Shown here: piece by piece, positions 1 to 18,670 of the stretch
Numbering within the stretch: the stretch's first letter is position 1
Layout: every line of letters starts with the position of its first letter
UHGV virus genome: UHGV-1662908
Length of the DNA stretch: 18,670 nucleotides
DNA from: a virus
Direction: 5' to 3' (one strand)
Translations under genes and position numbers: made by a program
The notes under the pieces: model-generated
The model's database searches: none
Told to the model about the DNA's origin: nothing
Seen by the model: only the letters and a program-made list of their open reading frames with translations

Positions 1-2
1 CG

Positions 3-1781: not shown

Positions 1782-4327
1782 TCCTGCACTACACGCGAAA
1801 CGCAGATGGCGCTTTCGACCGCACAAAACACGTCGGGATGCCGATGGAGTTTGTCGTTAACCGTATCCCCGACGGCGTGCCGGTGCGCGTCTACCTCGGC
1901 GAGATTGGTGACGATACCGACGTAACTGACGACTTCGACGCGCTTAAAGACGAAGACGCGGTGTACCACATTATTGAGGGTGCTGGTGGTGGTATAGGTA
2001 ACGCTATTGGGAAGGTGTTTGGTTTTATCCTTAAGCCAATCGCTAAGTTGTTTGGTCTTAACCGGACACCTAATGCCGACTACACGGCGACTAACAATCA
2101 GACAACGTCACCGAACAACAGCCTTACCGACCGTTCCAACAAGCCGCGCCCTTACGAGCGCTCTTATGACATATGCGGGACTGTACAGACAATTCCTAAT
2201 GACCTGATGCAGACGTACAAGGCGTTCAACTCCACGGGCGCTTTGCTGGAGTATTCGTACTACGACGCAGGGCGCGGGCATCTGCATATTGAGGCCAATG
2301 GCGTCACAGAGGGTGACACCTTGATAAGCGACATCACGGGTTCCTCTGTTGCCGTGTATGCGCCGTATACTTCCCCTAACAACACCACATCCCCTCAACT
2401 ACAAATCGGCGACGTCATTGACCAGAAACTCTATGTGACATACTCCAATGATGACGTCGACGGCATTGTACTGAAAGCGCCAAACGACATCGGAGCTAAC
2501 CCAACCTCCGGCGGCACTGCCAAACGTATCTCAACCACCGGCTACATCTATGACCCGTCGGGCGACTCTGCTTTTTCTGAGTTTCTTAGTGTCGGTGATG
2601 TCGCGGTGCTGAGCAACTTTGACGTACGCGATGTCACTAACCTGAACGGCTCATTTGAGGTTTTATATGTCGACGACTTTGAGGTTCGGTTGTACGTCGG
2701 GAATATAGGTAACTGGGGCAATCTTAGTAATGGGCAGACTTACGCCCTGACAGAGCGTTCGGATACGTTTATAGGCCCGAGCAACACGTACGATGTGTCC
2801 CTGACCGACTGGTATTACATGGTGCGCGGAGAAGTTGACCGAGTGCTCGCCAACGTTGCTGGTCAGAACGGCCTCTACAAATACGATGGCGGCTATAACC
2901 GCACCAGCGTAACCGTAGAACTCCAGTACCAGATGATTGATTCCCGGCGCAACCCGTTGGGTGATATTTACACGGTACAGGCTACAATTACGGGCAACAA
3001 TACCGACTACGTCGGCACGTCTATCTACGGTCAACTGCCGACCGCGTCCCGTTTCCGCGCCCGCATGCGCCGTATAACGAATTTCGATAAGGACTATGAC
3101 GGTACAGTAAGCGACGAGATAACGTTCATCAACCTGTACGGGCAGTCCCTGGACACAACCCCACACTACGGCAACAGAACTACCGTACATTGCGCCCGTA
3201 AACAGACGCCACGTGCCGCAAGTATCGACAACCCGGAACTGCGCATGATCGCAACCGAGATGTGTTACAAATACCGGGGAAATGGGGTATTTGATACAGT
3301 AATGACGCCGAATACGCAGGCGGTACAATCGCTAATCAGACTGGCGCGTGACCCGGCGGTGGGCAATCTGGAACTCACAACGGCAAACATGGATAAGTTA
3401 CTATCCGTGCAGGAAGAAATTGAGTCCTATTTCGGAAGTGAATTGGCGGGGCAGTTCTGCTACACATTCGACGACTACGACACAACTATGCAGGACATCG
3501 TTCAGACTATAGCTGAAGCCGTGTTCTGTACCGCGTACCGTAAAGGCGCGGATATTATGCTGCGATTCGACCGCCCAGTCGCTGGGCCAGAGATGGTGTT
3601 CACCCACCGCAGCAAAACTACCGGGACGGAGAAATGGTCCCGCACGTTCAACGATTCGACAACCTACGATAGTCTGTCGTTCTCGTACATCGACCCGGAT
3701 ACTAACGTACAGGAAACGATTTATATCCCGGAAGAACTTGGGGTAAACACCGAAGAATACGAATCGAAGGGGGTGCGCAACTACCAGCAAGCGTACTGGC
3801 TTGCGTGGCGTCGCTACCAACGCAACGCGTTAAGTAAAGTTGTCGTAGAGTTCGAAGCTACCGAAGAGGGGGCACTCGCTACACCGGGCGGCGTAATCAG
3901 TGTGGTTAAAGGCTCGCGTATCGCGCCACAGGACGGCTATGTTGTTGCCGTTAATGGGCTTACGCTGACGCTGTCTCAACCTGTTACGTTTACTCCGGGG
4001 GATGACCACTCCATCATCCTCAAGAAGCGCGACGGCTCGGTGCAGAGTATCTCTGTTATCAAAGGAAGTCACGACCGTGAGGTGGTTATGCTCTCCGCGC
4101 CGGAGGAGGCAATCTACACAGGGAATAGTGCACTAAAAACTGAGTTTTCATTCGGCAACGAAGCAAGGCATAATGCTCAGAAGATAGTTGTTTCCTCAAT
4201 CGACCCGGGCGACGACCGCACGGTCAGGATTACTGGTTACAACTATGACGATGGATTCTATAAATACGACGGCGTCGCGCCATACGGCAGCGGTTTCTCC
4301 GACGGGTACAGCAACGGTTTTAATTAA
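1772..4327 (+). CDS. large tail-tip / host-specificity-like structural protein (851 aa in track; start uncertain)
   Basis: Long ORF 1772..4327 directly after the small tail proteins and before the tail fiber. Track start is a TTG overlapping the upstream stop; first ATGs are at about 1838 and 1844 (MPMEF). A Gly-rich hydrophobic stretch lies near the N-terminus (GGGIGNAIGKVFGFILKPIAKLFG). Confidence 0.6.
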   Translation: MAIILHYTRNADGAFDRTKHVGMPMEFVVNRIPDGVPVRVYLGEIGDDTDVTDDFDALKDEDAVYHIIEGAGGGIGNAIGKVFGFILKPIAKLFGLNRTPNADYTATNNQTTSPNNSLTDRSNKPRPYERSYDICGTVQTIPNDLMQTYKAFNSTGALLEYSYYDAGRGHLHIEANGVTEGDTLISDITGSSVAVYAPYTSPNNTTSPQLQIGDVIDQKLYVTYSNDDVDGIVLKAPNDIGANPTSGGTAKRISTTGYIYDPSGDSAFSEFLSVGDVAVLSNFDVRDVTNLNGSFEVLYVDDFEVRLYVGNIGNWGNLSNGQTYALTERSDTFIGPSNTYDVSLTDWYYMVRGEVDRVLANVAGQNGLYKYDGGYNRTSVTVELQYQMIDSRRNPLGDIYTVQATITGNNTDYVGTSIYGQLPTASRFRARMRRITNFDKDYDGTVSDEITFINLYGQSLDTTPHYGNRTTVHCARKQTPRAASIDNPELRMIATEMCYKYRGNGVFDTVMTPNTQAVQSLIRLARDPAVGNLELTTANMDKLLSVQEEIESYFGSELAGQFCYTFDDYDTTMQDIVQTIAEAVFCTAYRKGADIMLRFDRPVAGPEMVFTHRSKTTGTEKWSRTFNDSTTYDSLSFSYIDPDTNVQETIYIPEELGVNTEEYESKGVRNYQQAYWLAWRRYQRNALSKVVVEFEATEEGALATPGGVISVVKGSRIAPQDGYVVAVNGLTLTLSQPVTFTPGDDHSIILKKRDGSVQSISVIKGSHDREVVMLSAPEEAIYTGNSALKTEFSFGNEARHNAQKIVVSSIDPGDDRTVRITGYNYDDGFYKYDGVAPYGSGFSDGYSNGFN

Positions 4328-4339
4328 AGAGGACTCTAT

Positions 4340-7213: not shown

Positions 7214-7240
7214 AAAAAAGGGCCGAAAGGCCCTTTTCTC
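7213..7240. terminator. bidirectional rho-independent terminator between convergent tail and replication modules
   Basis: A-run, GC stem GGGCC, GAAA loop, GGCCC, then TTTTCTC; flanked by A-run on one side and T-run on the other, so it can terminate both strands. Lies at the 3' end of the tail fiber gene and of the minus-strand operon. Confidence 0.7.
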
Positions 7241-7377
7241 TACTCTTCTGATAACTTCTCCAGTACAAACGCCAGTTGCGCATTAGCGGCGTCTCTTTGC
7301 TGCCGTAGGCGTAGAACCTCCTCTTCAAGTTCCTTGATACGTTTTTGCAATGCCGGAATCGGAGCTATGATGTTCAT
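7240..7377 (-). CDS. small hypothetical protein (~45 aa, predicted coiled coil)
   Basis: Not in the ORF track (under 60 aa). My translation gives MNIIAPIPALQKRIKELEEEVLRLRQQRDAANAQLAFVLEKLSEE; its ATG overlaps the stop of the upstream 61-aa ORF (ATGA) and it ends at the terminator. Confidence 0.3.
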   Translation of the reverse strand: MNIIAPIPALQKRIKELEEEVLRLRQQRDAANAQLAFVLEKLSEE

Positions 7378-7559
7378 TTCTCACCTTCGCTTTTCTTGAA
7401 GCTGCGCTTTATGTCCGGCAGCGTGTAACATCGTGACTTTTCGTATTTACCGTTCGAGCTTACCAAAACAAAGCTGTTGCCGTCTTTTGATATGTACTCG
7501 ATGGTGAAAGTATTGAATGTGCGTATGCTGTATATTTCATCACCAACATTAAGTTTCAT
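7374..7559 (-). CDS. hypothetical protein (61 aa)
   Basis: ORF track 7374..7559; start overlaps the helicase stop; last in the minus-strand operon. Confidence 0.45.
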   Translation of the reverse strand: MKLNVGDEIYSIRTFNTFTIEYISKDGNSFVLVSSNGKYEKSRCYTLPDIKRSFKKSEGEK

Positions 7560-8980
7560 TTCTTACCTCGTCTCTTCATGTAATTAAGCAACTCTTCCTG
7601 TACCGATTTTTTCTCGTCCGTACGCGCGGCAACAACCTCGTCCAGCGTGTCTTTAGCGACGATGTGGTAGAGGAACACCGGGCGCTCGTGTCCTGCCTGT
7701 TTCTGACGGACTGGACCTATACGCTCAACGACCTGCAAATAGTGCTCAAGGTTCCATCCCTGACTTATGAACGCCAGATGATGCCCGCCGTCCTGTAAAT
7801 TTAAACCATGACCGGCTGACGCAGGGTGGACGCATAGTATTTCGATTTCACCACGGTTCCACGCTTCCATCTGCTTATTACCCTTAGCGCCTTTTGCAAA
7901 CGCCTGTGCCTGCGGGAAACGTTTCAGGATGCGTTCCAGTTCGTGCTTGAACTGATAAGCCACAAGCAGCGGCGCGCCCTGTAACTCCTCGACAATTGAC
8001 TCAAGCGCGTCAAGTTTCGTATCGTGCACTTTCTCCCAGTCTTTGGTTGCTTCGCCGTCTGGCCCTGACACATATACGGCACCGGAGGCAATCTGCAAAC
8101 ACTTCGACGTCTTCGCCGCAGCGTTAGCGGCTTCAACCTCCCCGCTCTCCAGTTCCGCGAATAACTTCTCCTCCATATCGATGTACGCCTGACGTGCTTT
8201 CTTCGGCAGGTCGATTTCCACTGGCACGATAACAGGCGCTTCACACCCGAACCACTCGGCAGCGTCAATCGTGAGACTGATGTCCTTCATCTTCTGGTGA
8301 ATTTCGTTATCCGCCCCCGGGCGCGCATGATACTCTCGCGCCATAGCGGACTTACCCTTCTGGACCGAATTAAACCAGCGGTCGGTGAACGCGGTGTATG
8401 AAGAACCCAGTCGCTCGCCAGCGTCAATAAACCAGTTCTGCCCCCACAAGTCCTTCAGGCCGTTTGGTGATGGCGTACCTGTCAGGTTGATAAAACGCTT
8501 AACCTTACCGAATGCCACTTTGCTAAGCGCCTTTGCCCGCTTGCTTCCGCCGGAACGGCTGCGGAATGATTTAAGTTTCGTGCTTTCATCGGCAACGATA
8601 ACCGTAAAAGGCCAGTCGTCTTTGCCGTAGTAGTCAATCAGCCATTCGATAACTTCATAGTTCGTGCACACCACGTTAGCGTATGACTCCAGCGCCGCGA
8701 TGCGGCGCTTCTCCGAACCCGTGGCATCGACGACACTCAGGCATGGGAATCGCCATTTCTCTTGTTCTGCTGGCCATGTGCCGGACGCAACGCGCAGCGG
8801 AGCTAGTATTAACACGCGGTCGTCATCGTTAAGTTGGCCGTTGCGGAACAGTCGGTTTAATGCCCACAGTACGCTGCCAGTCTTCCCGGCACCCATGCTT
8901 GCCCATATGTTGCAGCGATTGTGCCGCAACATAAACGAAGTCATGAGCTTTTGGTACTCGCGCCTTTGAAACTTAGACAT
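7556..8980 (-). CDS. SNF2/DEAD-like superfamily 2 helicase (~474 aa)
   Basis: Track ORF 7556..9298, but its first ~106 codons overlap the upstream gene and look non-protein-like; likely start is the internal ATG (MSKFQRREYQ) at 8980. Motifs: Walker A GAGKTGS, DExx box VIVADEST, SNF2-type motif III LTGTPSPN. Confidence 0.8.
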   Translation of the reverse strand: MSKFQRREYQKLMTSFMLRHNRCNIWASMGAGKTGSVLWALNRLFRNGQLNDDDRVLILAPLRVASGTWPAEQEKWRFPCLSVVDATGSEKRRIAALESYANVVCTNYEVIEWLIDYYGKDDWPFTVIVADESTKLKSFRSRSGGSKRAKALSKVAFGKVKRFINLTGTPSPNGLKDLWGQNWFIDAGERLGSSYTAFTDRWFNSVQKGKSAMAREYHARPGADNEIHQKMKDISLTIDAAEWFGCEAPVIVPVEIDLPKKARQAYIDMEEKLFAELESGEVEAANAAAKTSKCLQIASGAVYVSGPDGEATKDWEKVHDTKLDALESIVEELQGAPLLVAYQFKHELERILKRFPQAQAFAKGAKGNKQMEAWNRGEIEILCVHPASAGHGLNLQDGGHHLAFISQGWNLEHYLQVVERIGPVRQKQAGHERPVFLYHIVAKDTLDEVVAARTDEKKSVQEELLNYMKRRGKK

Positions 8981-9656
8981 GATTAGCCTCGTAAACTGCT
9001 TTTGCGAGCCCACGCGGAGTAAGGCTGCGGATTGTTTTTGTTCTGGCGCTCTTTCCGCCGAGTTTAGCCCAACCAGGGTTATCTCCGCTGCCCACGGCAA
9101 CCTCGGCAACGTTAGGCATAACAAACCCATTTCCGGCCCACAGGCACGTCTTTTTAACATATGCATCTCGCGCCGGGATAACATCCGGGAACATTGGATG
9201 CGTGTCGTCTTCGGGTAAATAGCCGCCGTATTCGTACGGATTGAACGCGTAGTCAGGCTTACGCCATAAAGACGAAAGAACGCTAACCGGGTTCTCAATC
9301 ATATACGGTACGTTGTACTTTTTAGCCAGACGCGCAGCCACTTTGCATGTAATCACGGCCTCTACCTGAAACGTTGGGTTCCTTCTCCGCTTCGTTTCGA
9401 AATGGGCCGCGCCGCTAACGGCTAAATCTGTGCATGGGGGGAACGCGAAAATAATATCCGGCGCAACGTCGAAGTCGAATTTATTATCAATCCACGCGTT
9501 TATATAGTGGATATTTTCATGTTCAACTTTTGCACCCAATCGAGCGTAGTCTCCGTGGTCGGCGCCGTCGTAGTTGAAACAATAGCAAGTATGGCCCGCT
9601 TCCGCCCACGGTTGGGCCATAATGCCCGAACCGTCAAACAATGACCAGACAATCAT
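8973..9656 (-). CDS. SAM-dependent DNA (cytosine-5)-methyltransferase-like protein (227 aa, short)
   Basis: ORF track 8973..9656. Motif I-like SLFDGSG (FxGxG), motif IV-like FPPC with candidate catalytic Cys, motif VI-like IENP. Shorter than typical C5-MTases, so the target-recognition region may be minimal or the function different. Confidence 0.5.
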   Translation of the reverse strand: MIVWSLFDGSGIMAQPWAEAGHTCYCFNYDGADHGDYARLGAKVEHENIHYINAWIDNKFDFDVAPDIIFAFPPCTDLAVSGAAHFETKRRRNPTFQVEAVITCKVAARLAKKYNVPYMIENPVSVLSSLWRKPDYAFNPYEYGGYLPEDDTHPMFPDVIPARDAYVKKTCLWAGNGFVMPNVAEVAVGSGDNPGWAKLGGKSARTKTIRSLTPRGLAKAVYEANHV

Positions 9657-9844
9657 TTCAGCACCAGCACAAGCTCTTTACGCCCGAACGCCGTAACGTT
9701 ACCCGTTACATCTTCGATAACCAGTTTACCGTTCGACTCGACGAACACAGTATCGACGGCAACAGGCCGACGGGTCTTAACGTTGAAAATCATGTCGCCC
9801 GGTACGATGTCACGTGCTGGTTTGCGGTCATATTCGTGTTTCAT
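9653..9844 (-). CDS. hypothetical protein (63 aa)
   Basis: ORF track 9653..9844; first gene downstream of promoter A, with AAGGA RBS about 9 nt upstream of the ATG; stop overlaps the start of the methyltransferase-like gene. Confidence 0.45.
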   Translation of the reverse strand: MKHEYDRKPARDIVPGDMIFNVKTRRPVAVDTVFVESNGKLVIEDVTGNVTAFGRKELVLVLK

Positions 9845-9874
9845 TTCTCAATTCCTTATATTGTTGGTGTGTGA

Positions 9875-10159
9875 TTAACTATAATAGTTCGCTATTAGGT
9901 CGTCAACCTGTTTGAACGAGCCAACGACAAAAACATTTGCACCACGTTTACACATCCGCGCATGCTCGCGTAACTGGTGTGGGTCTGGCTTCGTGTTTTC
10001 GTCTTTCTTAACCTCGACGAACCAGATGATGCCGCCGGGGAGAATTACCAGCAGGTCGGGAGCGCCGGAGCGCCCCTCGTAGGAAAGTTTACGAACGAGG
10101 CCACCGAGGGCCTCGAATCGTTCTTTTGCGTATTTCTGAATCTTGCCCTCCGGGGTCAT
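9875..10159 (-). CDS. VRR-NUC domain nuclease (PD-(D/E)xK fold)
   Basis: ORF track 9875..10174 starts at a TTG; the in-frame ATG (MTPEGKIQ...) at 10159 overlaps the upstream small ORF stop (ATGA). Motif GAPDLLVILPGGIIWFVEVKK matches the VRR-NUC D..(E)VK signature. Confidence 0.65.
   Translation of the reverse strand: MTPEGKIQKYAKERFEALGGLVRKLSYEGRSGAPDLLVILPGGIIWFVEVKKDENTKPDPHQLREHARMCKRGANVFVVGSFKQVDDLIANYYS
9876..9906 (-). promoter_or_regulatory. sigma70-like promoter A (minus strand): TTGACG - 17 bp - TATAGT
   Basis: Minus-strand reading gttgacgacctaatagcgaactattatagtt; member of a 3-copy family (see 14349 and 17013). About 30-60 nt upstream of the 63-aa gene start. Coordinates approximate. 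Confidence 0.5.
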
Positions 10160-10308
10160 GAGCGCAGAACCCAAGTTATAAACGCCCCGCCTAGAACGGC
10201 AACACCGACAAACTTAAAGAACAGGCCATAACAGAACATCGCAGCTATTCCCGCACCGAGTAACAGTGCGAGCATGGTTACTATCGTCCAAAATACAAAC
10301 ATTGTCAT
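10156..10308 (-). CDS. small hydrophobic membrane peptide (~50 aa)
   Basis: Not in track. My translation MTMFVFWTIVTMLALLLGAGIAAMFCYGLFFKFVGVAVLGGAFITWVLRS; ATGA overlaps at both ends place it exactly in frame between neighbours. Confidence 0.4.
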   Translation of the reverse strand: MTMFVFWTIVTMLALLLGAGIAAMFCYGLFFKFVGVAVLGGAFITWVLRS

Positions 10309-10394
10309 AATACGCACCCCTCTCGTTTTGTATGCTCAATCCCGCAGCGCGGGCAGATTCGACAGTCTTCTTCGTATAACCCGTAAATTTTCAT
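10305..10394 (-). CDS. tiny Cys-rich peptide (~29 aa, CxxCxxC...C)
   Basis: Not in track. My translation MKIYGLYEEDCRICPRCGIEHTKREGCVL; ATGA overlaps with both flanking small ORFs. Confidence 0.3.
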   Translation of the reverse strand: MKIYGLYEEDCRICPRCGIEHTKREGCVL

Positions 10395-10522
10395 TCCAGC
10401 ACCCACAGATAAATTGCGATGAACATACCCAATACGGTGACAATCATGCCGTATTGACCCTCGTGACAGTAGACACCGGCGGCGAATCCCGCCAGTAATA
10501 CGATAATCAGTTTACTTAGCAT
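10391..10522 (-). CDS. small hydrophobic membrane peptide (~43 aa)
   Basis: Not in track. My translation MLSKLIIVLLAGFAAGVYCHEGQYGMIVTVLGMFIAIYLWVLE; its ATG overlaps the last codons of the DNA polymerase gene and its stop overlaps the next ATG. Confidence 0.4.
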   Translation of the reverse strand: MLSKLIIVLLAGFAAGVYCHEGQYGMIVTVLGMFIAIYLWVLE

Positions 10523-13500
10523 AACGTTTCATCTCCGCACCTTCCGCTACAAGCGGGAACCCCTCAGCCCACTCAGGCAGCGAACACATTAATTTTTCCA
10601 GTTCAGCCACCGTGTAATCAGGCGTATCTGGAGTTTCACACACCAGTTCATCGTGTACCGAAAGCACGATGGGATACCCGCCACCCTCAACATTAATCAT
10701 CGCATATGCTAGTAAATCACGGCACAACGCCTGAACAATGTTTTCACAGGCTTTGCCGCCGTGGGTGTACAGGGTAGTCCATTGGCGGGTTAACTGGTTT
10801 TCACCTTGGTACTTGATTCGCACATTCGTGTTTACCCGTCCGTCTTCGTCTGTTTCTTTTGTCACGCTAACGCCGATCCCCGGATACGAGAGGATACGGC
10901 CTGACGGCAACTCCATACACAACCACCAACCGGGAACCTTCCTACCTGATGAATCGGTTTCTACTGTTCTCCAGATTCGGATAGCGCGCTCGCCATTCTT
11001 GCGCAAGTGTGCTCCCGCCCAAAATTCACGACCAGGATTGCGCACAGCGGCTAAAATTCCGTCTTTAAGGTCCCGCCAGAACGCTACTGTTTCCGGGTGT
11101 GACTCGCGCCACATACGCTTGATCGCGTCACATGTGCGCCACACTTTCTTGTCCAGAATATACGATGGTCTGTCGTCCTTTTCACCTGGATGCGGTGGCC
11201 GCTTTGCTTCCTGGATGCGTGCCCACTCGTACCCGCGTGCGGTAGCGGCCCATATGTGGCCCGGGAATGTACCGTCCATTGTTTTTGCCATCTCAATAAG
11301 GTCAAGACCTAAGTTTTTAGCGAACGTAACGAACGCTCCGACGCCTCCCTCGTAGCCGAGGCCAAGCTCGCAGTTATGCGCCACAAGAAAGCCAGAGTCT
11401 GAGGCTATAAGAAAACGGTTGCCGTCTTCCACATCAATCAGGTCGTACACCGGCTCGCAGTAGGTTAATTTCCCGCTCAAGTTCAGCAATGCGGGCAACG
11501 GCTGCATCATACTTTCGTTGAAGCTCGGGTATTTGCCGTCTGTTTCGGCAGTTTTCAGAACGGCTGACAAACCGAATGTTTCCAGGTTCGTAGTTACCGT
11601 CTGTGTCGATTCTATCCATTTCGAGGTTCGGGTCATCCCAGCTTTCCAGAGTTTGAACATATCTAAGAAAAGACCTTTTATCAGTCCTCCACTGGTCGAA
11701 TACCGTGATGCCTCTTGCCCCATAGTTTTTATAACCCTTATCCCTGGGGCTTGTTGTTCGCGTGATAGCCGCGGACAGCCGGTTGAGTAATCGCGTTCTG
11801 TGCGCATCATCCGGCATTGCGTCTTCGTAGCAGAAATACTGTTTACGATATTTTTTTGTTGCTTCAAGGGCGCAGCGGTTGCATTGAGTGGTTTTACCCG
11901 CTCTGACGTTGTCATAATAGACCCGCCCCGGCATCCCCCCGCAATCACATTGGACGAGTAGTTGTCTTTGGCCTTGTCGTTTTGGTAACTCGCGCAGGAT
12001 AACCAAGCGTCCATACCTCTCTCCAGGGCGAGGCCCATCATATATCTGTTTGAAGCGAGTTGCTTTGCCTGCTTCCAGGAATGCGCCAAGATTTTGTGGT
12101 CTTCGGTCATTAGCACCCCGTCCACATTTATTACCGGTTTCCACCCCATAAGGTGCGCGCCTTTTGTATTCACCCATTTTTCACCGCTCCATACTTTATC
12201 TGTTGATGTAACCGCCATAATATCCTTAAATCCGCCATCGGTCAAAACTTGGGTATGACGGTGAAGGCACGCTTTACCAATCTGGCGCAAGTCTTTACGT
12301 TCTTTCTTAATGTCGTCTGGGTCCATGCCAAACATCTTACCTGCGGTTACGCAATAAATATCCAGCCCGGCGCGGAACGTATCTAGCGCGGTTTCTTCGC
12401 CTGCAAGCCACGCAAGCCCTCGGCCCTCAACGTTAGAATAATCGGCAACAACAAACTTATGTCCTGCTTCCGGTATGATGCAGCTACGCACCGTCGATGC
12501 CGTTAATTTAGCGACATCAAAACGGCGGTGCGCGCGGCCCTTAAGTAACGCTGAAATGCCTTTATCCAGTTCATCATCGTGATAGTACCCGCGCGCGAGG
12601 TTCTGCGGTTGGAAGCCTTTACCCGCCCATCGCAGAGTGCGTTTTGCCCCGCCGTACTGCAAGCAACCGCGGCGTCGGTCGTCAGAAGAGCGGCCCAACA
12701 GCAGTGGGTTATATTTCGTTGATGCGGTGGACGCGGCCCCGAGGCGCATTTCTATAATCATGCGAGCATCGTCGGGTAAATCATCGTCTGCCAGCAGGTC
12801 ATTCAGTGTCGACTTCTGTGCGTTATGGATGCGGTGCGCGGGTGCGAGTTCACGCAGAATCGGAAGGAAGTCTTTACCAGTAAGCGAGCCGCCGTATTTT
12901 CGTTGGGCTTCTTCCTGTAACTGTGCCTTGTGCTTCTCCACGGCTTCAATCGCGGCTTCCGCCAGTGCGACGTCAACCTTAAACCCGCGGTCATTGATTA
13001 ACTGGTCCAGCTCCAGTACACGGTCCTCGAACTCGGAGTTACCCCAACGCGGCAGTTTATGGAAGACTTCACGCATCGCGGTGATGTCGCTCACGGCGTA
13101 CTTGATGAACAGCGCCCACTCGTCAGGGTGTGTTTCTGCGGTGTATCGACGGATTTTGTAGTTCTTCGGCGTCGGTTTAGAGAAACGCTGAATCAGCGCC
13201 TTGCCGCGTTTGTCTTTTGCATTGTCCGCCGATACGCCCAGCACTTCGCACAGCGCATCAAGTGACCCAGGCAGCGCGTGACGAAACGCTCGAATCATAG
13301 TGTCGATGGTATTTCTCGGTTTGATATCCACACCCCAGCAGTGCTTCATAACTAGCCTGTCGAACATTAAAAAGTTATGGCCTACAATTCTCATACGCCC
13401 GCGCATAACATTACGTAGCGCAACGCGTAGGCTTATTGGCATTACTGGTTCGGAAGTGCAATCCCATACTTCTACAGGCCCATCATCAACGGCGTATGTA

Positions 13501-13607
13501 CATATTATAATCTCAGTTGTTGCGTGTTCCGCGTATGCGTATGACCCTACTTTCTTTAGGTCAGCTTCAGAGAATGTTTCGGTATCAAGATACAATAAAT
13601 TAGCCAT
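10512..13607 (-). CDS. family A DNA polymerase with N-terminal 3'-5' exonuclease domain, interrupted by an intein (precursor 1031 aa)
   Basis: ORF track 10512..13607. Exo motifs YLDTETFS, GHNFLMFD, YAVSDI; polymerase motif A VVADYSNVEGRG; motif B split as RQIGKA / CELGLGYEGG; motif C VLSVHDELV. Confidence 0.9.
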   Translation of the reverse strand: MANLLYLDTETFSEADLKKVGSYAYAEHATTEIIICTYAVDDGPVEVWDCTSEPVMPISLRVALRNVMRGRMRIVGHNFLMFDRLVMKHCWGVDIKPRNTIDTMIRAFRHALPGSLDALCEVLGVSADNAKDKRGKALIQRFSKPTPKNYKIRRYTAETHPDEWALFIKYAVSDITAMREVFHKLPRWGNSEFEDRVLELDQLINDRGFKVDVALAEAAIEAVEKHKAQLQEEAQRKYGGSLTGKDFLPILRELAPAHRIHNAQKSTLNDLLADDDLPDDARMIIEMRLGAASTASTKYNPLLLGRSSDDRRRGCLQYGGAKRTLRWAGKGFQPQNLARGYYHDDELDKGISALLKGRAHRRFDVAKLTASTVRSCIIPEAGHKFVVADYSNVEGRGLAWLAGEETALDTFRAGLDIYCVTAGKMFGMDPDDIKKERKDLRQIGKACLHRHTQVLTDGGFKDIMAVTSTDKVWSGEKWVNTKGAHLMGWKPVINVDGVLMTEDHKILAHSWKQAKQLASNRYMMGLALERGMDAWLSCASYQNDKAKDNYSSNVIAGGCRGGSIMTTSERVKPLNATAAPLKQQKNIVNSISATKTQCRMMRTERDYSTGCPRLSREQQAPGIRVIKTMGQEASRYSTSGGLIKGLFLDMFKLWKAGMTRTSKWIESTQTVTTNLETFGLSAVLKTAETDGKYPSFNESMMQPLPALLNLSGKLTYCEPVYDLIDVEDGNRFLIASDSGFLVAHNCELGLGYEGGVGAFVTFAKNLGLDLIEMAKTMDGTFPGHIWAATARGYEWARIQEAKRPPHPGEKDDRPSYILDKKVWRTCDAIKRMWRESHPETVAFWRDLKDGILAAVRNPGREFWAGAHLRKNGERAIRIWRTVETDSSGRKVPGWWLCMELPSGRILSYPGIGVSVTKETDEDGRVNTNVRIKYQGENQLTRQWTTLYTHGGKACENIVQALCRDLLAYAMINVEGGGYPIVLSVHDELVCETPDTPDYTVAELEKLMCSLPEWAEGFPLVAEGAEMKRYAK
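11373..12269 (-). mobile_element. intein (299 codons) inserted in motif B of the DNA polymerase
   Basis: Boundaries computed from track coordinates: Cys447 (CLHRHTQVLTDGGF, block A) to Asn745 (VYDLIDVEDGNRFLIASDSGFLVAHN, blocks F/G), followed by +1 Cys; block B TEDHKILA at aa ~501-508. Confidence 0.75.
11434..12177 (-). CDS. HNH homing-endonuclease-like ORF lying inside the intein but in a different reading frame from the polymerase/intein frame
   Basis: ORF track 11434..12177 (247 aa); frame differs from the polymerase ORF ((13607-12177) mod 3 = 2). Contains GRLVIL...CDCGG...QCNRC and GYKNYGARGITVFDQW...MDRIDTDGNYEPGNIRFVSRSENCRNR, typical of phage HNH endonucleases. Recognisable part starts ~aa 50; the first ~50 codons overlap intein blocks A/B. 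Confidence 0.6.
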   Translation of the reverse strand: MGEYKRRAPYGVETGNKCGRGANDRRPQNLGAFLEAGKATRFKQIYDGPRPGERYGRLVILRELPKRQGQRQLLVQCDCGGMPGRVYYDNVRAGKTTQCNRCALEATKKYRKQYFCYEDAMPDDAHRTRLLNRLSAAITRTTSPRDKGYKNYGARGITVFDQWRTDKRSFLRYVQTLESWDDPNLEMDRIDTDGNYEPGNIRFVSRSENCRNRRQIPELQRKYDAAVARIAELEREINLLRAGVRPD

Positions 13608-13623
13608 ATTATTTTCGACCCTT

Positions 13624-13650
13624 AGTAAAAAGGCCCAATGAAGGGCCTTA
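13624..13650 (-). terminator. intergenic stem-loop / partial terminator between ssDNA-binding-like gene and DNA polymerase gene
   Basis: Inverted repeat AAGGCCC ... GGGCCTT with a 6-nt loop, followed on the minus strand by a run of T; sits in the 61-nt gap between the two genes. Coordinates approximate. Confidence 0.5.
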
Positions 13651-13668
13651 GTTAAATTGATTCAGATA

Positions 13669-14295
13669 TTAACGGCGACGACGTTCACGGCGCGGTGCTC
13701 CATCTTCTTCGTCGTCTTCCAGGTCATTAACGCTTGCAGCAACTTTAGAACCGCCGAACGCTTTACCTTCGCCGACGTATTTAATTGCCAGCAGGTTAAC
13801 GCCGAGGACTTTATATTTCTGGCTAAACCAGATTTCAACGCTTACGTTGGCGACACAGCCGCTGTAAACCTGTTCACCTTCAATCTGTTCGCCGTCTACA
13901 TTGAAGTCCTGCTCTACCTGAGTCTCACCTTTTTTAGAGGTTACAATCAGCGGCTGTTTCTGTGCCTTCGCTTTGAAGTAGAATCCTTCCGGGAAGTCTT
14001 CATACGGATTGTCGCGCTCGGCAATGTCTTTAATCGCGCATTTATCCATGTGCTTGCCTTCGCCGTAGTTCGACTTCATCCATTTCTCGGCGGCGGCTGC
14101 ACCTAACGCTTCTTCAACTACAGCGTAAACAGTGTCGTAGAGCGCATCGATTTGAGCATGGTCAGATGGCAGGATAATAGTCGCGCTGTACTGGCCTTTA
14201 GTGATTGAGCCATCATCGTTTTCACGGTCTTTTTCGCGTTCGAATACGTTAACCCATGCAGTGTTTACTTTACGTAGATTTAATTTCAGTCCCAT
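13669..14295 (-). CDS. DUF2815-like phage ssDNA-binding protein with acidic C-terminal tail
   Basis: ORF track 13669..14295. N-terminal pattern (KVNTAWVNVFE...KGQYSATIILPSDHAQID) resembles the DUF2815 family that accompanies DUF2800 nucleases and PolA in phages; acidic tail DLEDDEEDG; first gene after promoter B. Confidence 0.55.
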   Translation of the reverse strand: MGLKLNLRKVNTAWVNVFEREKDRENDDGSITKGQYSATIILPSDHAQIDALYDTVYAVVEEALGAAAAEKWMKSNYGEGKHMDKCAIKDIAERDNPYEDFPEGFYFKAKAQKQPLIVTSKKGETQVEQDFNVDGEQIEGEQVYSGCVANVSVEIWFSQKYKVLGVNLLAIKYVGEGKAFGGSKVAASVNDLEDDEEDGAPRRERRRR

Positions 14296-14348
14296 CTTGA
14301 TTTCTCGCTTTTAAGTTTACTCCGGGAAACTGCCCGGCCAGTGATTAG

Positions 14349-14380
14349 AACTATAATAGCTAACTATTCAGGTGTCAACA
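14349..14380 (-). promoter_or_regulatory. sigma70-like promoter B (minus strand): TTGACA - 17 bp - TATAGT
   Basis: Minus-strand reading gttgacacctgaatagttagctattatagttc; 29 of 31 positions identical to promoter C. About 55-85 nt upstream of the ssDNA-binding-like gene start. Coordinates approximate. Confidence 0.55.
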
Positions 14381-14382
14381 CT

Positions 14383-15684
14383 TTATTCTAAATCTTCTTC
14401 ACTAACCTGATTCCACTCAGGCCGTTTGTCGTCTGCCGTTGCGACGCATGGCGCGCCTGGCTTACGAGTAACTTTCGTTTCCAGTTCGGCCCACATCCTG
14501 GCATACGCGCCTTTTAACACTTTTTCCGCTTCCGTTGGTGACATAACAGATTTCTTTGTTAGCAAATCCATGTCTACGTTATGGCGCGCTGCTAGTTCTT
14601 CGACCCATTTTTCATCACTCCAGCTACGATTACCCGGACGACCTTCAACCAGCTTATACCCCGGCACTTTCTTACCGGAATGCAAAGCGGCGGCCATAGC
14701 TTTCTCAACCTTGTCGATGTGCTGGCGCAACAACGGCAACTTCTCGTACTCAGCTACGAGTTGCTCTGGTGTCAGTTCCAGTGCAAAGTCGTCCTCCAGT
14801 TCTTCTGCCAGTACTGCGTTAACCGTCTTTGTACGCACGGCGCATTGTTCAGAGAACCGACACCACTGGCAGCCATCGACCGACGGCCTGAAGTCCGACG
14901 CTTTCAGGTTCTTCTTGCCGCGGAAATATGCATCAAGCGCCAACAGTGCACGTTTCCGTGCGAACTTAGCGAACAGTTCCAGACCTTCAACCGAGATGTC
15001 CCACTCCGACGCCCCACCAGCGTACGGTTGGAAGATTACCAGACGAACAGTTGTTATGTTATAACGTCTCTTGAGACGGCGATAAACACCGAGAGCGTAA
15101 AGCATAAGCTGTTTGTTTTCTTTCGCTTCGACACGATGTCGTCCTGTTTTCAGGTCGCCAATAATGAGCATGTGCTCGTCGGTGTTTGCCATCTCCTGTA
15201 CGGCAACAAGGTCAGAAGTTCCGAATGTCTGTAGTTCTTCTTGCCGTCCGTTAGGGCTATGAATGTAGCCAGGATGCAATACCTCAGTAAGATTGACGCA
15301 CATTTCCAGCTTGGCGTAAGTAGCCACGTCGATAATAGCTTTGCAGTAATCGGTGTACTTACGCACCTGCTCAATCATGTCAGCCGTAATCAGTACCGCG
15401 CCTTTCATCGGGCTGATTAGCGCCTTAATCTGGCCTTTGCCTTCATCCAGCACGTAAGCGCCAACTTCACGCCCTAACGGCAATGCAGTGCCACGGATAT
15501 AGGCGTTTAGATGGACCTCCGCTATGGTGTGCATGGCTGTGCCTAATACCGCAGCTTTACCGGACGTGTTAGGAATATCTTTCTCACAGGCCAGTGATGC
15601 AGCACAGCTTAGCCACTTTTTAGCGCCTGACGGTGACAGTAAGGCGTGCACATCGTTATTGCCGCCACGTTCTTTAAGAATCAT
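14383..15684 (-). CDS. PD-(D/E)xK nuclease of the DUF2800 / Cas4-RecB-like type (433 aa)
   Basis: ORF track 14383..15684. N-terminal HALLSPSGAKKWLSCAAS; IIGDLKTG...QLMLYALG matches a D..K...Q..Y nuclease motif; one N-terminal Cys plus a C-terminal CQWCRFSEQC cluster is consistent with a Cas4-like Fe-S site. Confidence 0.6.
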   Translation of the reverse strand: MILKERGGNNDVHALLSPSGAKKWLSCAASLACEKDIPNTSGKAAVLGTAMHTIAEVHLNAYIRGTALPLGREVGAYVLDEGKGQIKALISPMKGAVLITADMIEQVRKYTDYCKAIIDVATYAKLEMCVNLTEVLHPGYIHSPNGRQEELQTFGTSDLVAVQEMANTDEHMLIIGDLKTGRHRVEAKENKQLMLYALGVYRRLKRRYNITTVRLVIFQPYAGGASEWDISVEGLELFAKFARKRALLALDAYFRGKKNLKASDFRPSVDGCQWCRFSEQCAVRTKTVNAVLAEELEDDFALELTPEQLVAEYEKLPLLRQHIDKVEKAMAAALHSGKKVPGYKLVEGRPGNRSWSDEKWVEELAARHNVDMDLLTKKSVMSPTEAEKVLKGAYARMWAELETKVTRKPGAPCVATADDKRPEWNQVSEEDLE

Positions 15685-16178
15685 TTCTCAGCTCCGTTAA
15701 CTGTAAACCCATATTTAATCTCGGCTTGCCTACGAGCCTTAGCCGCGTTCTCTAACTTATCGTAAGCCCCTAAATAAATCGGCCTGCCGTCTACATAAAT
15801 TCTAGCGACCCACTTACCGTAGCGTTTATGAAACCCAACACCTTTAACCCCTGAAGTATTGTCGGTCCGTATGTTTGTGCCGTGTGCGATACTTCCCCGA
15901 CGCATTTTTATAAGATTTTCTATTCTGTTATCAGTTCTATCTTTATTTTTATGACGAATTACTTCCCCGGGCGCTATCACCCCGTTAAACATCTCCCAAA
16001 CTACGTGGTGGATAAGTTTAGTAGTCCCGTTAAAACGTAGTATTTTAAATTCACTCCCGTCGTTGTCCTCCCTCGTACTGCCAGCTTCTTGCCCTATTTT
16101 TACAGATTTTGACGGACTTATTTTCCAAAATAATTTACCGGTATCAGGGTCGTAGTCAAAAACTTCATGCCAGTTCAT
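15681..16178 (-). CDS. free-standing HNH homing endonuclease with C-terminal AP2-like DNA-binding domain
   Basis: ORF track 15681..16193; likely start is the ATG (MNWHEV) at 16178, overlapping the upstream stop (ATGA). HNH motif HHVVWEMFNG...IRHKNKDRTDNRIENL; AP2-like SGVKGVGFHKRYGKWVARIYVDGRPIYLGAYDKLENAAKARRQAEIKYG. Confidence 0.7.
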   Translation of the reverse strand: MNWHEVFDYDPDTGKLFWKISPSKSVKIGQEAGSTREDNDGSEFKILRFNGTTKLIHHVVWEMFNGVIAPGEVIRHKNKDRTDNRIENLIKMRRGSIAHGTNIRTDNTSGVKGVGFHKRYGKWVARIYVDGRPIYLGAYDKLENAAKARRQAEIKYGFTVNGAEK

Positions 16179-16447
16179 ACCCTGCTCTCCCACTGGTCAA
16201 TTAAATGTCGTGTCTTATGTTCGCAGTGCATAGCCCAGCTATACATCGACTCGAAGACATAAAAGTCAGGCTTGACGAACGTCGTGCGCTTAATCTGAGA
16301 CACGTGACGGCCTATATCTTTAGGCCATGGTACTTTGCCTAAGTACGCCATCTCTTCCATCTGGTGAGCACCGGACGGCGCACGTAACAGCCATAGCGCC
16401 TCTGTGGTATCCCGCCTGTCTACGGCGCGGTAGAGTTGGTAAATCAT
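16175..16447 (-). CDS. hypothetical protein (90 aa)
   Basis: ORF track 16175..16447; GAGGG RBS ~8 nt upstream of the ATG; stop overlaps the HNH-AP2 start. Confidence 0.5.
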   Translation of the reverse strand: MIYQLYRAVDRRDTTEALWLLRAPSGAHQMEEMAYLGKVPWPKDIGRHVSQIKRTTFVKPDFYVFESMYSWAMHCEHKTRHLIDQWESRV

Positions 16448-16465
16448 ATTTCCGACCCTCAGTTA

Positions 16466-16485
16466 AAGCGGCCCGAAGGCCGCGA
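16466..16485 (-). terminator. stable GC stem-loop (UUCG tetraloop on the minus-strand RNA) between two operon genes; weak terminator or RNA stability/processing element
   Basis: GCGGCC CGAA GGCCGC on the + strand, i.e. GCGGCC UUCG GGCCGC in the minus-strand transcript; no strong U-tract follows, so probably not an efficient terminator. Coordinates approximate. Confidence 0.4.
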
Positions 16486-16490
16486 GATAG

Positions 16491-16982
16491 TTATTCTTCT
16501 TCGAAATACTTGTTCTTGATTGCCGTCAGACGTTCCAGGTACTCGGCAAGGTCTTCGTCTTTAATCGCGGCAATCTTCATCTTCTTACCGGTGAACTCTT
16601 CCAGCAGTTCATCAGAGTCATCGCACGCGGCGTCGCTAGGGCCTTCGTTAATCGCATCATCGATAGCCTGAATCTGGTCGCGCAGAGACTGGTAATCGAC
16701 TTCTTCTTCCGGCTCTGGCGTCGGCTCCTCTGCTTTAGCTTTACGCGGCTTGCGTTTTGGCTTCTCTTCTTCTGCTGGTTTAGTGTCAACGATGTCTTCG
16801 CCTTCCACCGGGATTTCTTTTGTTTCTTCTTTAATACTTTCAGAGAACTGCTCAATTTTATGTGCGGCTACTGCGGCAGCCTCTTTGGCAGTAGTTGGCG
16901 CGAACTGTTTCGCACTATTCGCAGCAATCAGTTCATGTGCAACCACGAAACGTTCCAGTAATACTAAGAATTTCTCTAACAT
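16491..16982 (-). CDS. acidic hypothetical protein (163 aa), first gene downstream of promoter C
   Basis: ORF track 16491..16982; strong GAGGAG RBS; highly acidic, Lys/Glu/Pro-rich central region and D/E-rich C-terminal half. Confidence 0.55.
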   Translation of the reverse strand: MLEKFLVLLERFVVAHELIAANSAKQFAPTTAKEAAAVAAHKIEQFSESIKEETKEIPVEGEDIVDTKPAEEEKPKRKPRKAKAEEPTPEPEEEVDYQSLRDQIQAIDDAINEGPSDAACDDSDELLEEFTGKKMKIAAIKDEDLAEYLERLTAIKNKYFEEE

Positions 16983-17012
16983 TTGTTTCTCTCCTCTCGT
17001 TTGGTATGTGCT

Positions 17013-17043
17013 AACTATAATAGCGAACTATTCACGTGTCAAC
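17013..17043 (-). promoter_or_regulatory. sigma70-like promoter C (minus strand): TTGACA - 17 bp - TATAGT, within the divergent region shared with the HTH regulator gene
   Basis: Minus-strand reading gttgacacgtgaatagttcgctattatagtta; about 30-60 nt upstream of the acidic protein gene. A partial extra copy of the spacer motif (actattcacatatcaac) lies ~35 bp to the right. Coordinates approximate. Confidence 0.55.
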
Positions 17044-17106
17044 GGGCTTTTCTAAAATAATTAATATGGTACTATTCACATATCAACTAACTAAGGAGTA
17101 ATTGAC

Positions 17107-17322
17107 ATGCAACCATCTGAACTAGGCATCCGTGTAGAACAACGCCGTAAAGAACTTGGCATCTCCCAGCGCCGTCTGGCTGTCATGGCTGGCGTTTCCC
17201 AGGGCGCAATTAACCAGCTTGCGCTTGGGGTAACTCAGGACGTACGCCCGGCGACGCTGTTTAAACTGGCAGAAGTGCTGCAAGTAGACGCCAAGTGGCT
17301 GGCGTTCGGTGAAGGGGTTTAA
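17107..17322 (+). CDS. XRE-family helix-turn-helix transcriptional regulator (Cro/CI-like, 71 aa)
   Basis: ORF track 17107..17322; AAGGAG RBS ~9 nt upstream; HTH signature QRRKELGISQRRLAVMAGVSQGAINQLALG; the only + strand gene within the minus-strand replication module. Confidence 0.75.
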   Translation: MQPSELGIRVEQRRKELGISQRRLAVMAGVSQGAINQLALGVTQDVRPATLFKLAEVLQVDAKWLAFGEGV

Positions 17323-17338
17323 CGCCCCTTTCTTTTTA
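17311..17338 (+). terminator. rho-independent terminator after the HTH gene
   Basis: Hairpin AAGGGG ... CCCCTT overlapping the stop codon, followed by TCTTTTT; lies between the convergent HTH gene and the minus-strand 104-aa gene. Coordinates approximate. Confidence 0.55.
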
Positions 17339-17650
17339 TTGCAACTTATCGAGTTCTTCCAAATTCTTAACCGTGTGTTGCACGTTCAGGTACTGAATCC
17401 AGGCCAGAAACCACACACTTACAGGAAAACTTATTACAATAGTTATCGCGATAATCAACTTGAAAAGGCACTTTATAATCTCCGCCAGCGTCATATCTAA
17501 AATGTCTTTAAACTCCGCAAAAATCCCCGCCGTGTAAACACAAAAAGTCCACCAGTGGCCGCTTACCGCGGAAACACATGTCAGGTATGACGGGCGGTAT
17601 CCTGCCTTCACTGCTTTAAATGGGTTATCTATAAAATCGTAGATATTCAT
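17336..17650 (-). CDS. hypothetical membrane protein (104 aa)
   Basis: ORF track 17336..17650; hydrophobic C-terminal segment (LFKLIIAITIVISFPVSVWFLAWI); start overlaps the stop of the upstream ATPase gene. Confidence 0.5.
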   Translation of the reverse strand: MNIYDFIDNPFKAVKAGYRPSYLTCVSAVSGHWWTFCVYTAGIFAEFKDILDMTLAEIIKCLFKLIIAITIVISFPVSVWFLAWIQYLNVQHTVKNLEELDKLQ

Positions 17651-18670
17651 TCCAAATCCTCCTCTGTCACTGTTAACATTTCATTCGGTTCGTATATTGT
17701 CTTCGGAATCTTGTTATCCGTTATCCGGGTGTTCAGCCGGTAACGACCCGGGATTATCTGATTGTTTTCGTCAGTCCCGGGTACGAGATACCCGGCCTCA
17801 ACCATTTTCTTAATCTTCCCGCGTTCTATGGCTTCTTTGGAGTTGAACGCCTTTGCGTTAGGGTCAGACTGTGCTAGCTTATTCGCTGCGGCTACCGTGA
17901 TACCTTCGTTGCCTTTGTAAGTTCCTTCCGCCAGTTCAAACGCTGCGAGTATCGTAGCCTCTGAACTGTTGACAGCGTTCTCTACAGTTTTGCGTACGTT
18001 TTCTTTACCTTCCTTTGTCAGCCCTTCTTCCCGCTCTTTCTCCTCGTCGGTCTTGAACGGCTCGAAGCCCCACGGCATCAGCACAAGCGCCTTGTGTGGC
18101 TCCGGCAGGTCGAGGTTTACGATTGTGCCGTATTCCTCGGTGCCGCCAGGGAACTCAACCGCGCGGTACTCTTTCGGCGGCGGCGCTTCACGGAACTGTA
18201 CAGACTCCAGCACCATACCAACCGTCTTCTGTTGCGGTCCGTGTTTGAATTTAGAGTGGTATACGTTTATCTGGCGGTCTGTTGCACGCTCAATTGTCAG
18301 TTCTACGTCTACACCTGCATACAGCGCCCCGCTGCCACGGGCCTTCTTTCCACCTTTCGGCGTATGGTGGACGACGCCTACCGCGGCTTTAGTCGCATCA
18401 CGTACTTCTTTCAGGATGGCAATAACTTTACCCATGCCGATTGCCGTTGATGAACTGTTCTCATCGAACTTATCAATCGTCAGAGCCAGGGTCTGGTTAA
18501 GGGTGTCGAACGCGACCATCCCAATTGGCTCGTCGCCAGCGGTTTCACGCATCAACTTAATCAGGTTTTTTGAGGACTCAGAGGACGAGTTACCGGAACC
18601 GGTAAAGGCTGATTTCGTCGTTGAGGGGTACATGCCGTCGGATTGTATCTGGGATATTGTCGGGGAATCC
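17647..18670 (-). CDS. RecA-like ATPase resembling the helicase domain of phage/plasmid primase-helicases (AAA_25/RepA-like); 5'-truncated by the window edge
   Basis: Track ORF 17647..18633, but the frame stays open to the window end, so the true start is outside. GVVHHTPKGG resembles the His-rich motif of DnaB/RepA-like ATPases; the Walker A region is presumably upstream. Confidence 0.5.
   Translation of the reverse strand, partial: DSPTISQIQSDGMYPSTTKSAFTGSGNSSSESSKNLIKLMRETAGDEPIGMVAFDTLNQTLALTIDKFDENSSSTAIGMGKVIAILKEVRDATKAAVGVVHHTPKGGKKARGSGALYAGVDVELTIERATDRQINVYHSKFKHGPQQKTVGMVLESVQFREAPPPKEYRAVEFPGGTEEYGTIVNLDLPEPHKALVLMPWGFEPFKTDEEKEREEGLTKEGKENVRKTVENAVNSSEATILAAFELAEGTYKGNEGITVAAANKLAQSDPNAKAFNSKEAIERGKIKKMVEAGYLVPGTDENNQIIPGRYRLNTRITDNKIPKTIYEPNEMLTVTEEDLE

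Follow-up and report, generated by a model that had tools for sequence, protein, structure and literature searches.

The virus genome UHGV-1662908, analyzed here as one stretch of 18,670 nt (the window), carries three predicted host-type promoters (A, B and C), each heading one segment of its minus-strand replication module, and the conserved part of their spacers is a perfect 14-bp inverted repeat, AATAG-N4-CTATT. The explanation that fits best, to which we assign a probability of just under 60%, is that this dyad is a palindromic operator within promoters read by the host sigma70 RNA polymerase, and that a dimer of a 71-aa Cro-like protein encoded next to promoter C would bind it and repress the replication operons, other transcription units and its own gene. 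By its sequence, the window is assigned to Kagunavirus, i.e., to the virulent E. coli siphophages of the Guernseyvirinae: the queried 9.7-kb half matched Kagunavirus phages at 87–92% identity across ~70–80% of its length, and the matching relatives are E. coli siphophages such as vB_EcoS_fPoEco01 (hereafter fPoEco01).

An inverted repeat in the spacers of three promoters

A first-pass annotation of the window had placed three minus-strand elements of the form TTGAC(A/G)-17-TATAGT at these locations, with B and C identical at 29 of 31 positions and the first gene of each segment 30–90 nt downstream, and had read them as sigma70 promoters heading three segments of the replication module. All of this was reproduced. 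Searching the window for TTGAC-N18-TATAGT (≤1 mismatch) yielded exactly three matches, namely A, B and C, vs 0.23 expected, and none of 200 shuffles reached three. The consensus 30-mer of B and C matched only these two (0.00 expected), and the identities over the 31-mer GTTGAC...ATAGTT were 29/31 for B and C, 24/31 for A and B, and 22/31 for A and C. The spacer is 17 nt long in all three promoters, each of which contains CTATTATAGTT; this string has three exact matches in the window and, with ≤1 mismatch, four vs 0.21 expected, the fourth being the opposite strand of A. Between the end of the −10 element and the next ATG there are 33 nt at A (ATG at 9844), 54 nt at B (ATG at 14295) and 31 nt at C (ATG at 16982). 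An independent consensus scan of positions 7000–18670 returned C, B (11/12) and A (10/12) as its top three minus-strand matches, i.e., 10–11 of the 12 consensus positions are matched, and all three elements combine hexamers close to TTGACA/TATAAT with a spacing of 17 ± 1 nt, the pattern of sigma70 promoters. In addition, the orthologs of A and B carry sigma70 promoter annotations in the GenBank record of phage Jersey (NC_021777). These results support the designation of A, B and C as sigma70-type host promoters at the head of three segments of the minus-strand replication module.

The inverted repeat is perfect in all three promoters and differs only in its centre, which is CGAA in A, TTAG in B and TTCG in C. 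Its final T doubles as the opening T of the −10 hexamer, and the dyad spans about −25 to −12. Besides these three exact copies, the window holds imperfect ones, giving five matches with ≤1 mismatch vs 0.56 expected. The fourth dyad, with one mismatch, is located 31 nt upstream of the start codon of the divergent helix-turn-helix (HTH) gene, and its centre lies 44 bp away from that of the C dyad. It is kept in all Kagunavirus loci. Its right half holds the −10-like sequence TACTAT (17070–17075, plus strand), an arrangement also seen in class 2 promoters from relatives (see below), and on the minus strand it shows a weak promoter-like layout, TTGATA-18-AATTAT.

Promoter A and its dyad (9875–9906, minus strand) overlap the end of the VRR-NUC gene, falling within its final ten codons and stop codon (...CTA ATA GCG AAC TAT TAT AGT TAA), where the same bases make up coding sequence, promoter and operator-like dyad. 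A few related genomes have no promoter A, and a terminator hairpin precedes the downstream 63-aa gene instead. The symmetry of the dyad, its fourth, imperfect copy and the position of promoter A within the last VRR-NUC codons had all escaped the first-pass annotation.

Conservation, registers and genome-wide distribution

Orthologous promoters were gathered via neighbouring-gene anchors and hence selected independently of the motif. Among 28 unique orthologs of promoter B, anchored at the gene start, 0–1 sequences were variant in each half-site column and 3–6 in each of the four central columns, which are the most variable part of the core promoter. Orthologs of promoter A, anchored at the downstream gene, kept the half-sites around the centres CGAA, CGAG, CGGA, CAAA, CACA, CTAG and AACA, as did the Kagunavirus orthologs of promoter C with the centres TTCG, TTCA, TTAG, CTCG, CTAG and TTTG. 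At C, the distance from the −35 element to the dyad shifts by 1 nt among orthologs, with a spacer of 17 or 18 nt, and the 3–5 nt between −35 and dyad vary in relatives like the central 4 nt. Between genera, promoter A changes its −35 from TTGACG to TTGATA, its −10 from TATAGT to TATATT and the centre of the dyad, and retains both half-sites. As the half-sites stay fixed while centre, −35 and −10 change, the ‘spacer conservation’ is best described as selection on two 5-bp half-sites and not on the centre. The near-identity of B and C in the window is partly incidental: promoter C of fPoEco01 has an 18-nt spacer and its flanking bases differ from those of the window.

In the complete genome of fPoEco01, the dyad (≤1 mismatch) matched 11 sites vs 0.96 expected. 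Nine of these 11 sites are strictly intergenic, while intergenic sequence accounts for only 6.7% of the genome (binomial p = 1.3e-9); the other two are element A, in the 3′-terminal part of the VRR-NUC gene, and a site in the annotated 5′ part of another open reading frame (ORF). This ORF is gp24 (L001 14806–15135), annotated as ‘superinfection immunity protein’, within whose annotated 5′ part there is a class 2 promoter with a perfect dyad (15038–15051). The equivalent site in phage Jersey is intergenic, and the start of gp24 is probably annotated too far upstream. Across 48 Kagunavirus/Jerseyvirus loci (≤20 kb), the AATAG dyad was the top or joint-top 5-mer dyad in all but one, where it was tied second, and in the whole genome of phage Jersey it was the most frequent or joint most frequent 5-mer dyad.

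Relative to the promoter hexamers, the dyad takes three different registers. In class 1 (TTGACA-nnTG-dyad-ATAGT), to which A, B and C belong, it occupies the position given above. Class 2 promoters have the layout TTGCAC-17-TACTAT with the −10 within the right half-site, and the dyad extends from about −19 to −6; such sites precede small genes of the early region and two short minus-strand units. In class 3, the −35 hexamer TTGACT lies at the dyad centre and there is always one mismatch, the weakened half being on opposite sides in the two genera (ACTAG..CTATT in Kagunavirus vs AATAG..CTAGT in Jerseyvirus). Furthermore, the dyad was found in both orientations relative to transcription. Because there are three registers, the dyad is independent of the hexamers of RNA polymerase. 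A few promoter candidates without a dyad were detected as well, e.g., that of the primase operon (TTGCTT-17-TATACT) and a candidate preceding the gene for the small terminase.

Two other kinds of site were considered and rejected. A CRP site fails because, although TGTGA precedes some of the dyads, the right half does not match by inspection. A MerR-type spacer operator, i.e., a dyad within an over-long spacer of 19–20 nt that an activator has to distort, fails because the spacers have the optimal 17 nt (18 nt in some C orthologs) and because the dyad is also found over the −10 and over the −35.

Taken against the first-pass annotation, the conservation of the spacer holds for the two half-sites; the rest, i.e., the flank towards the −35 and the central 4 nt, varies. 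The three elements, proposed there as a dedicated set for the replication module, are rather part of a genome-wide set of ~11 sites, and these sites are clearly not spread at random through gene interiors.

A Cro-like protein as candidate binder and the competing explanations

The gene divergent from promoter C encodes the HTH protein that the first-pass annotation had pointed to. It consists of a single HTH_3 domain (Pfam, E = 5.7e-13, residues 11–65 of 71). The best sequence match among solved structures was Cro of phage 434, likewise 71 aa long (E = 3.6e-7, residues 6–68). A single-sequence AlphaFold2 (AF2) model with five helices (predicted local distance difference test, pLDDT, 83.8) had the 434 Cro structure 2cro as its top Foldseek match (template modelling score, TM, 0.73/0.79; 40% identity). 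PHROGs labels the protein ‘transcriptional repressor’, and the homologous gene of temperate lambdoid phages is annotated as cro. Sequence and predicted fold agree in identifying it as 434-Cro-like. The recognition helix, SQGAINQLALG, is shared unchanged by 35 of 36 Kagunavirus-type sequences, even by one with an overall identity of only 77%, and the gene adjoins two copies of the putative operator, the C dyad and the site at 17063–17076. Cro and repressor of phage 434 bind 14-bp dyads (ACAA-N6-TTGT) in which the outer bases are conserved and the centre is not contacted. The AATAG dyad has the same geometry and the protein a 434-Cro-like fold; therefore, the protein fits as its binder. From sequence and position, it is the prime candidate and most likely the one that binds the dyad.

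We propose that the strong promoters A, B and C would be read by the host sigma70 RNA polymerase and that a dimer of the Cro-like protein would bind AATAG-N4-CTATT. Since dyads cover spacer, −10 or −35 sequence, the bound dimer would exclude RNA polymerase. Accumulating Cro-like protein would then turn down the replication operons and other transcription units and, via the operator copy in its own promoter region, would repress its own gene.

The working principle is best read, by analogy, as that of a Cro–operator system of the 434/lambda/P22 type. As in phage 434, and also in lambda and P22 (c2/Cro), a single-domain HTH_3 protein of ~70 aa is combined with a 14-bp dyad overlapping core promoter elements; as in phage 434, two operator copies are present in the divergent region beside the regulator gene and the putatively regulated, rightward-type operon comprises replication functions. 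The half-site AATAG differs from ACAA of phage 434. Unlike in 434 and lambda, the operators are dispersed at ~10 promoters and not arranged in OR/OL triplet clusters, and the Cro-like gene is single, on the opposite strand and not the first of an early operon; in Cornellvirus, the Cro-like gene does head the primase operon. A lambdoid CI/Cro immunity switch was rejected, as the annotation of fPoEco01 lists no CI-type repressor, integrase or lysogeny module and the divergent partner is the replication operon.

Two further types of regulation share some of these features. The P1 C1 operators and the ‘stoperators’ of mycobacteriophage L5 gp71 are many short asymmetric sites throughout the genome, bound by lysogeny repressors of temperate phages. 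Here, too, one regulator would serve many short sites scattered over promoters and intergenic regions; unlike in P1 and L5, the sites are palindromic and no lysogeny module is annotated. The controller (C) proteins of restriction-modification systems are HTH_3 dimers that control their own expression by binding dyads within the promoter of their gene; the C-boxes are paired, and, depending on concentration, regulation changes from activation to repression. C.AhdI and C.BclI are small HTH_3 proteins as well and are structural neighbours of the AF2 model, but they act at a single promoter, in contrast to the many promoters and the lack of any sign of activation in our case.

The gene downstream of promoter C retrieved 63 viral contigs, including distant relatives at 31–44% identity. 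In nearly all of these 63 loci the Cro-like gene is found near the homologous promoter, divergent and adjacent where short flanks show it. Several of these lineages have dyads of their own at the corresponding promoter positions, with nominal enrichments of four sites vs 0.27 expected for AATAC-N4-GTATT (L157), nine vs 0.42 for TAATA-N6-TATTA (L152) and five vs 0.58 for TTAGC-N2-GCTAA (L163 and L165), the last within the 14-bp frame nTTAG-CnnG-CTAAn. In Cornellvirus, where AATAG-N4-CTATT was looked for and is absent, ATTAS-N4-STAAT occurs at the same promoter positions. The promoter B ortholog of L163, TTGACT-CTACTTTAGCGAGCTAA-TATAGT, holds its spacer dyad directly upstream of the −10 as in B, stopping one base short. 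Each lineage examined has a copy of its own dyad before the Cro-like gene, too. The exact enumeration of 5-mer dyads missed the Cornellvirus operator because the fifth position is G or C without pairing; the degenerate form WWTAS-N4-STAWW recovered it. Most of the lineages tested show an enrichment of this form, which is clear in the shorter loci of L152, L154, L157 and L163.

The spacing of the two operators in the region of the HTH gene and promoter C (17019–17076 in the window; L045, L089, L094) is 44–45 bp in Kagunavirus and 55 bp in Jerseyvirus; in two distant lineages it is 64–65 bp, so that lineages differ by steps of about one helical turn. This hints at a spacing that keeps both sites on the same face of the DNA, though the choice of sites is partly ambiguous and the lineages are few, and we do not rely on it.

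Several observations weigh against the assignment of the dyad to the Cro-like protein as a repressor. The recognition helices differ between Kagunavirus (QGAINQ) and Jerseyvirus (QSLITH) despite the common AATAG core, and the sole difference found between their operators is in the outer flank, with T in 88% of the Jerseyvirus half-sites and G or T in Kagunavirus. Comparing recognition-helix residues with half-site bases over seven lineages, we found no simple code, and Kagunavirus and Jerseyvirus share the core despite different helices; the covariation argument therefore stays qualitative. The lineage dyads were picked post hoc from many possible ones, which inflates their nominal significance; their consistent placement at the promoters is the stronger argument. 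Part of the conservation of CTATT may be promoter-intrinsic, because this right half-site directly borders a (C/G)TATTATAGTT block whose conservation extends to very distant lineages. Repression rather than activation we infer from the position of the operators only, and in the literature on Guernseyvirinae phages we found no binding, transcriptome, start-site or operator studies.

The distribution of a second small regulator counts against the Cro-like protein as well. The dyad could be the operator of an HTH_17 (excisionase-type) protein or of a host factor, which we consider unlikely, though worth taking seriously. The HTH_17 protein (56–60 aa, gp51 of fPoEco01), whose gene lies outside the window and heads the primase operon of Kagunavirus and Jerseyvirus, was found only in these two genera (443 records), matching the distribution of the AATAG dyad, and was undetectable in Cornellvirus and more distant lineages even by profile search; between the two genera it retains ~82% identity and an almost unaltered helix, in contrast to the Cro-like protein, whose helix differs. 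However, its own promoter, the one at the primase operon mentioned above, lacks the dyad, and K1H-like variants with four changes in HTH_17 (VSTMTLNRW vs VTRQTINNW) still have five exact AATAG dyads. HTH_17/Xis-type proteins of ~56 aa do not typically bind perfect palindromes of the 5-4-5 form. Analogous dyads occupy the same promoter positions in lineages that lack HTH_17, and of the regulators only the Cro-like protein is present in all of them. Most transcription factors are common to E. coli and Salmonella, and a factor present in both hosts would also explain the shared dyad. Yet Cornellvirus infects Salmonella just as Jerseyvirus does and has no AATAG dyad, which makes a host factor unlikely.

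Explanations that dispense with a separate repressor fare worse. The conserved block might be a promoter-intrinsic element read by a phage or a modified host polymerase, given that the program PHIRE finds the motif, that seven copies were called ‘Phage RNAP promoter’ in phage fBC-Eco01 (PMC9825357), and that the right half-site merges with the deeply conserved TATTATAGTT region of the −10. This is very improbable: there is no RNA polymerase gene to be found in fPoEco01, Jersey or the window and no sigma gene in fPoEco01 or the window, the hexamers are near-consensus sigma70 hexamers at 17-nt spacing, and a dyad occurring in three registers and both orientations has no fixed position relative to the start. 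Palindromy with a free centre is the signature of dimer binding rather than of polymerase recognition, and the dyad changes between lineages while −35 and −10 remain sigma70-like. The first-pass annotation had left the choice between a shared operator and a phage-specific recognition element; dyad symmetry, free centre, several registers and lineage dyads fit the former, whereas the latter is disfavoured, with no phage RNA polymerase annotated in the complete relative. Shared ancestry or exchange (duplication, gene conversion, recombination linkers) might alternatively have produced similar spacers without any function. The 29/31 identity of B and C in the window would agree with this, as would the 96–99% identity of the promoter B region and its gene across Kagunavirus and Jerseyvirus and the locus L078 (FSL SP-101-like), where Jersey-type sequence gives way to Kagunavirus-type sequence precisely at promoter C. 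But exchange should homogenize centre and flanks, too, and these differ among paralogous promoters and among orthologs, with the half-sites alone being fixed; moreover, the dyad is found in promoters that resemble each other neither in the rest of their sequence nor in register, and the near-identity of B and C breaks down in relatives such as fPoEco01. We regard this explanation as improbable.

Parts of these findings have precedents. For fBC-Eco01, PHIRE returned the motif tgAATAGTa-ccTATTat-T, listed in seven copies as promoters of a phage RNA polymerase; PP4 in the supplementary table is the ortholog of element A and PP5 that of the fourth site, and the orthologs of B and C are not included (PMC9825357). 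The genome paper on vB_EcoS-Golestan contains PHIRE-predicted phage-specific promoters as well (PMC7203180). These papers describe the same motif but credit it to a phage RNA polymerase, which these genomes do not encode, and neither the dyad symmetry nor the link to a Cro-like protein is noted. Thus, the motif itself has already been published as a PHIRE ‘phage promoter’, and its dyad nature, the three registers, the Cro-like link and the diversification among lineages appear to be new.

If the Cro-like protein does act on the dyad, the ‘phage promoter’ motif of genome papers would turn into a repressor operator in host-type promoters, correcting a habit of annotation, and two named proteins and ~ten sites would become testable. 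It would also mean that a Cro-type regulator was kept and spread genome-wide in phages without a lysogeny module, and would provide strong, compact, repressible promoters together with orthogonal operator variants from sister lineages. Guernseyvirinae (Kagunavirus, Jerseyvirus) are widely isolated and have been proposed for therapy against E. coli K1 and Salmonella.

A farther-reaching version of the Cro-like operator hypothesis is conceivable but doubtful: without a CI partner, this one protein might set the whole transcription programme in a family of virulent siphophages, via operators of graded quality in the three registers. Early and replication promoters would then have perfect sites, placed over the spacer or the −10, and promoters into structural genes and into genes after the lysis cassette would have conserved one-mismatch sites over the −35. 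The specificities of the lineages (AATAG, AATAC, ATTAS, TTAGC) would have diversified into immunity-like groups, which, if real, could govern cross-repression between co-infecting relatives.

Layout of the window and further observations

The window is divided into plus-strand tail genes (bases 1–7213) and the minus-strand replication module, which extends from 7374 to the window end and has a single plus-strand gene, that of the Cro-like protein, inside (Table 1). The gene assignments draw on Pfam and, in the segment of promoter C, also on PHROGs. An Rfam scan of the window gave no matches to RNA families.

Table 1. Positions of promoters, dyads, genes and a hairpin within the window.
Feature	Position	Strand	Details
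Promoter A	9878..9906	minus	TTGACG-ACCTAATAGCGAACTAT-TATAGT; −35 at 9906-9901, −10 at 9883-9878
Promoter B	14350..14378	minus	TTGACA-CCTGAATAGTTAGCTAT-TATAGT; −35 at 14378-14373, −10 at 14355-14350
Promoter C	17014..17042	minus	TTGACA-CGTGAATAGTTCGCTAT-TATAGT; −35 at 17042-17037, −10 at 17019-17014
Dyad in promoter A	9883..9896		AATAG-CGAA-CTATT, read on minus
Dyad in promoter B	14355..14368		AATAG-TTAG-CTATT, read on minus
Dyad in promoter C	17019..17032		AATAG-TTCG-CTATT, read on minus
Fourth dyad, one mismatch	17063..17076		plus AATATGGTACTATT, minus AATAGTACCATATT
71-aa Cro-like HTH gene	17107..17322	plus	divergent from promoter C
Terminator-like hairpin	17311..17331	plus	GAAGGGGTTTAACGCCCCTTT then T-run; at HTH gene end, before convergent 104-aa gene
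63-aa gene	9653-9844	minus	under promoter A
Dcm-like methylase	8973-9656	minus	under promoter A; Pfam
SNF2 helicase	7556 to ~8980	minus	under promoter A
61-aa gene	7374-7559	minus	under promoter A
DUF2815/Enc34-type single-stranded DNA-binding protein	13669-14295	minus	under promoter B; Pfam
Family A DNA polymerase	10512-13607	minus	under promoter B; Pfam
53-aa ORF		minus	under promoter B
VRR-NUC	9875-10174	minus	under promoter B
163-aa gene	16491-16982	minus	under promoter C
90-aa gene	16175-16447	minus	under promoter C
HNH/AP2 endonuclease	15681-16193	minus	under promoter C
DUF2800 PD-(D/E)XK nuclease	14383-15684	minus	under promoter C

In the locus that changes type at promoter C (L078/L141, the IMG/VR copy of Salmonella phage FSL SP-101), the change falls in the intergenic region upstream of the ortholog of the 163-aa gene: as far as the −10 of this promoter the sequence, including a 100% Jersey-type Cro-like gene, is Jersey-type, and directly downstream of the −10 it is Kagunavirus-type. 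Here, the conserved promoter therefore coincides with a recombination junction between modules.

Past promoter B, after the predicted mRNA start of the single-stranded DNA-binding protein gene, the 5′ untranslated region contains a hairpin (CCGGG-CAGTTT-CCCGG, window ~14318–14337, minus strand). It is kept in Kagunavirus, Jerseyvirus and Cornellvirus, and a comparable GC-rich stem is present in the L163 lineage; its folding is no more stable than that of shuffled sequence (z = −0.07). The hairpin could be a 5′ stabilizer or a translational operator.

A 104-aa gene on the minus strand (17336–17650) separates the Cro-like gene from the end of the helicase-primase gene. It belongs to phrog_2638, of unknown function, and has weak membrane-protein-like Pfam matches. 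The gene has no counterpart in the fPoEco01 helicase-primase, whose gene stops where the 328-aa ORF of the window stops. The apparent split of the helicase-primase gene itself was dismissed as an artefact of the ORF listing, the reading frame being open up to the window end.

The family A DNA polymerase is 1031 aa long in the window vs 726 aa in phage Jersey. The insert comprises 299 extra residues (447–745; window ~11373–12269, minus strand) and is placed at IGKA/CELG; its first residue is Cys, its end is His-Asn and the next residue is again Cys, the canonical intein signature.

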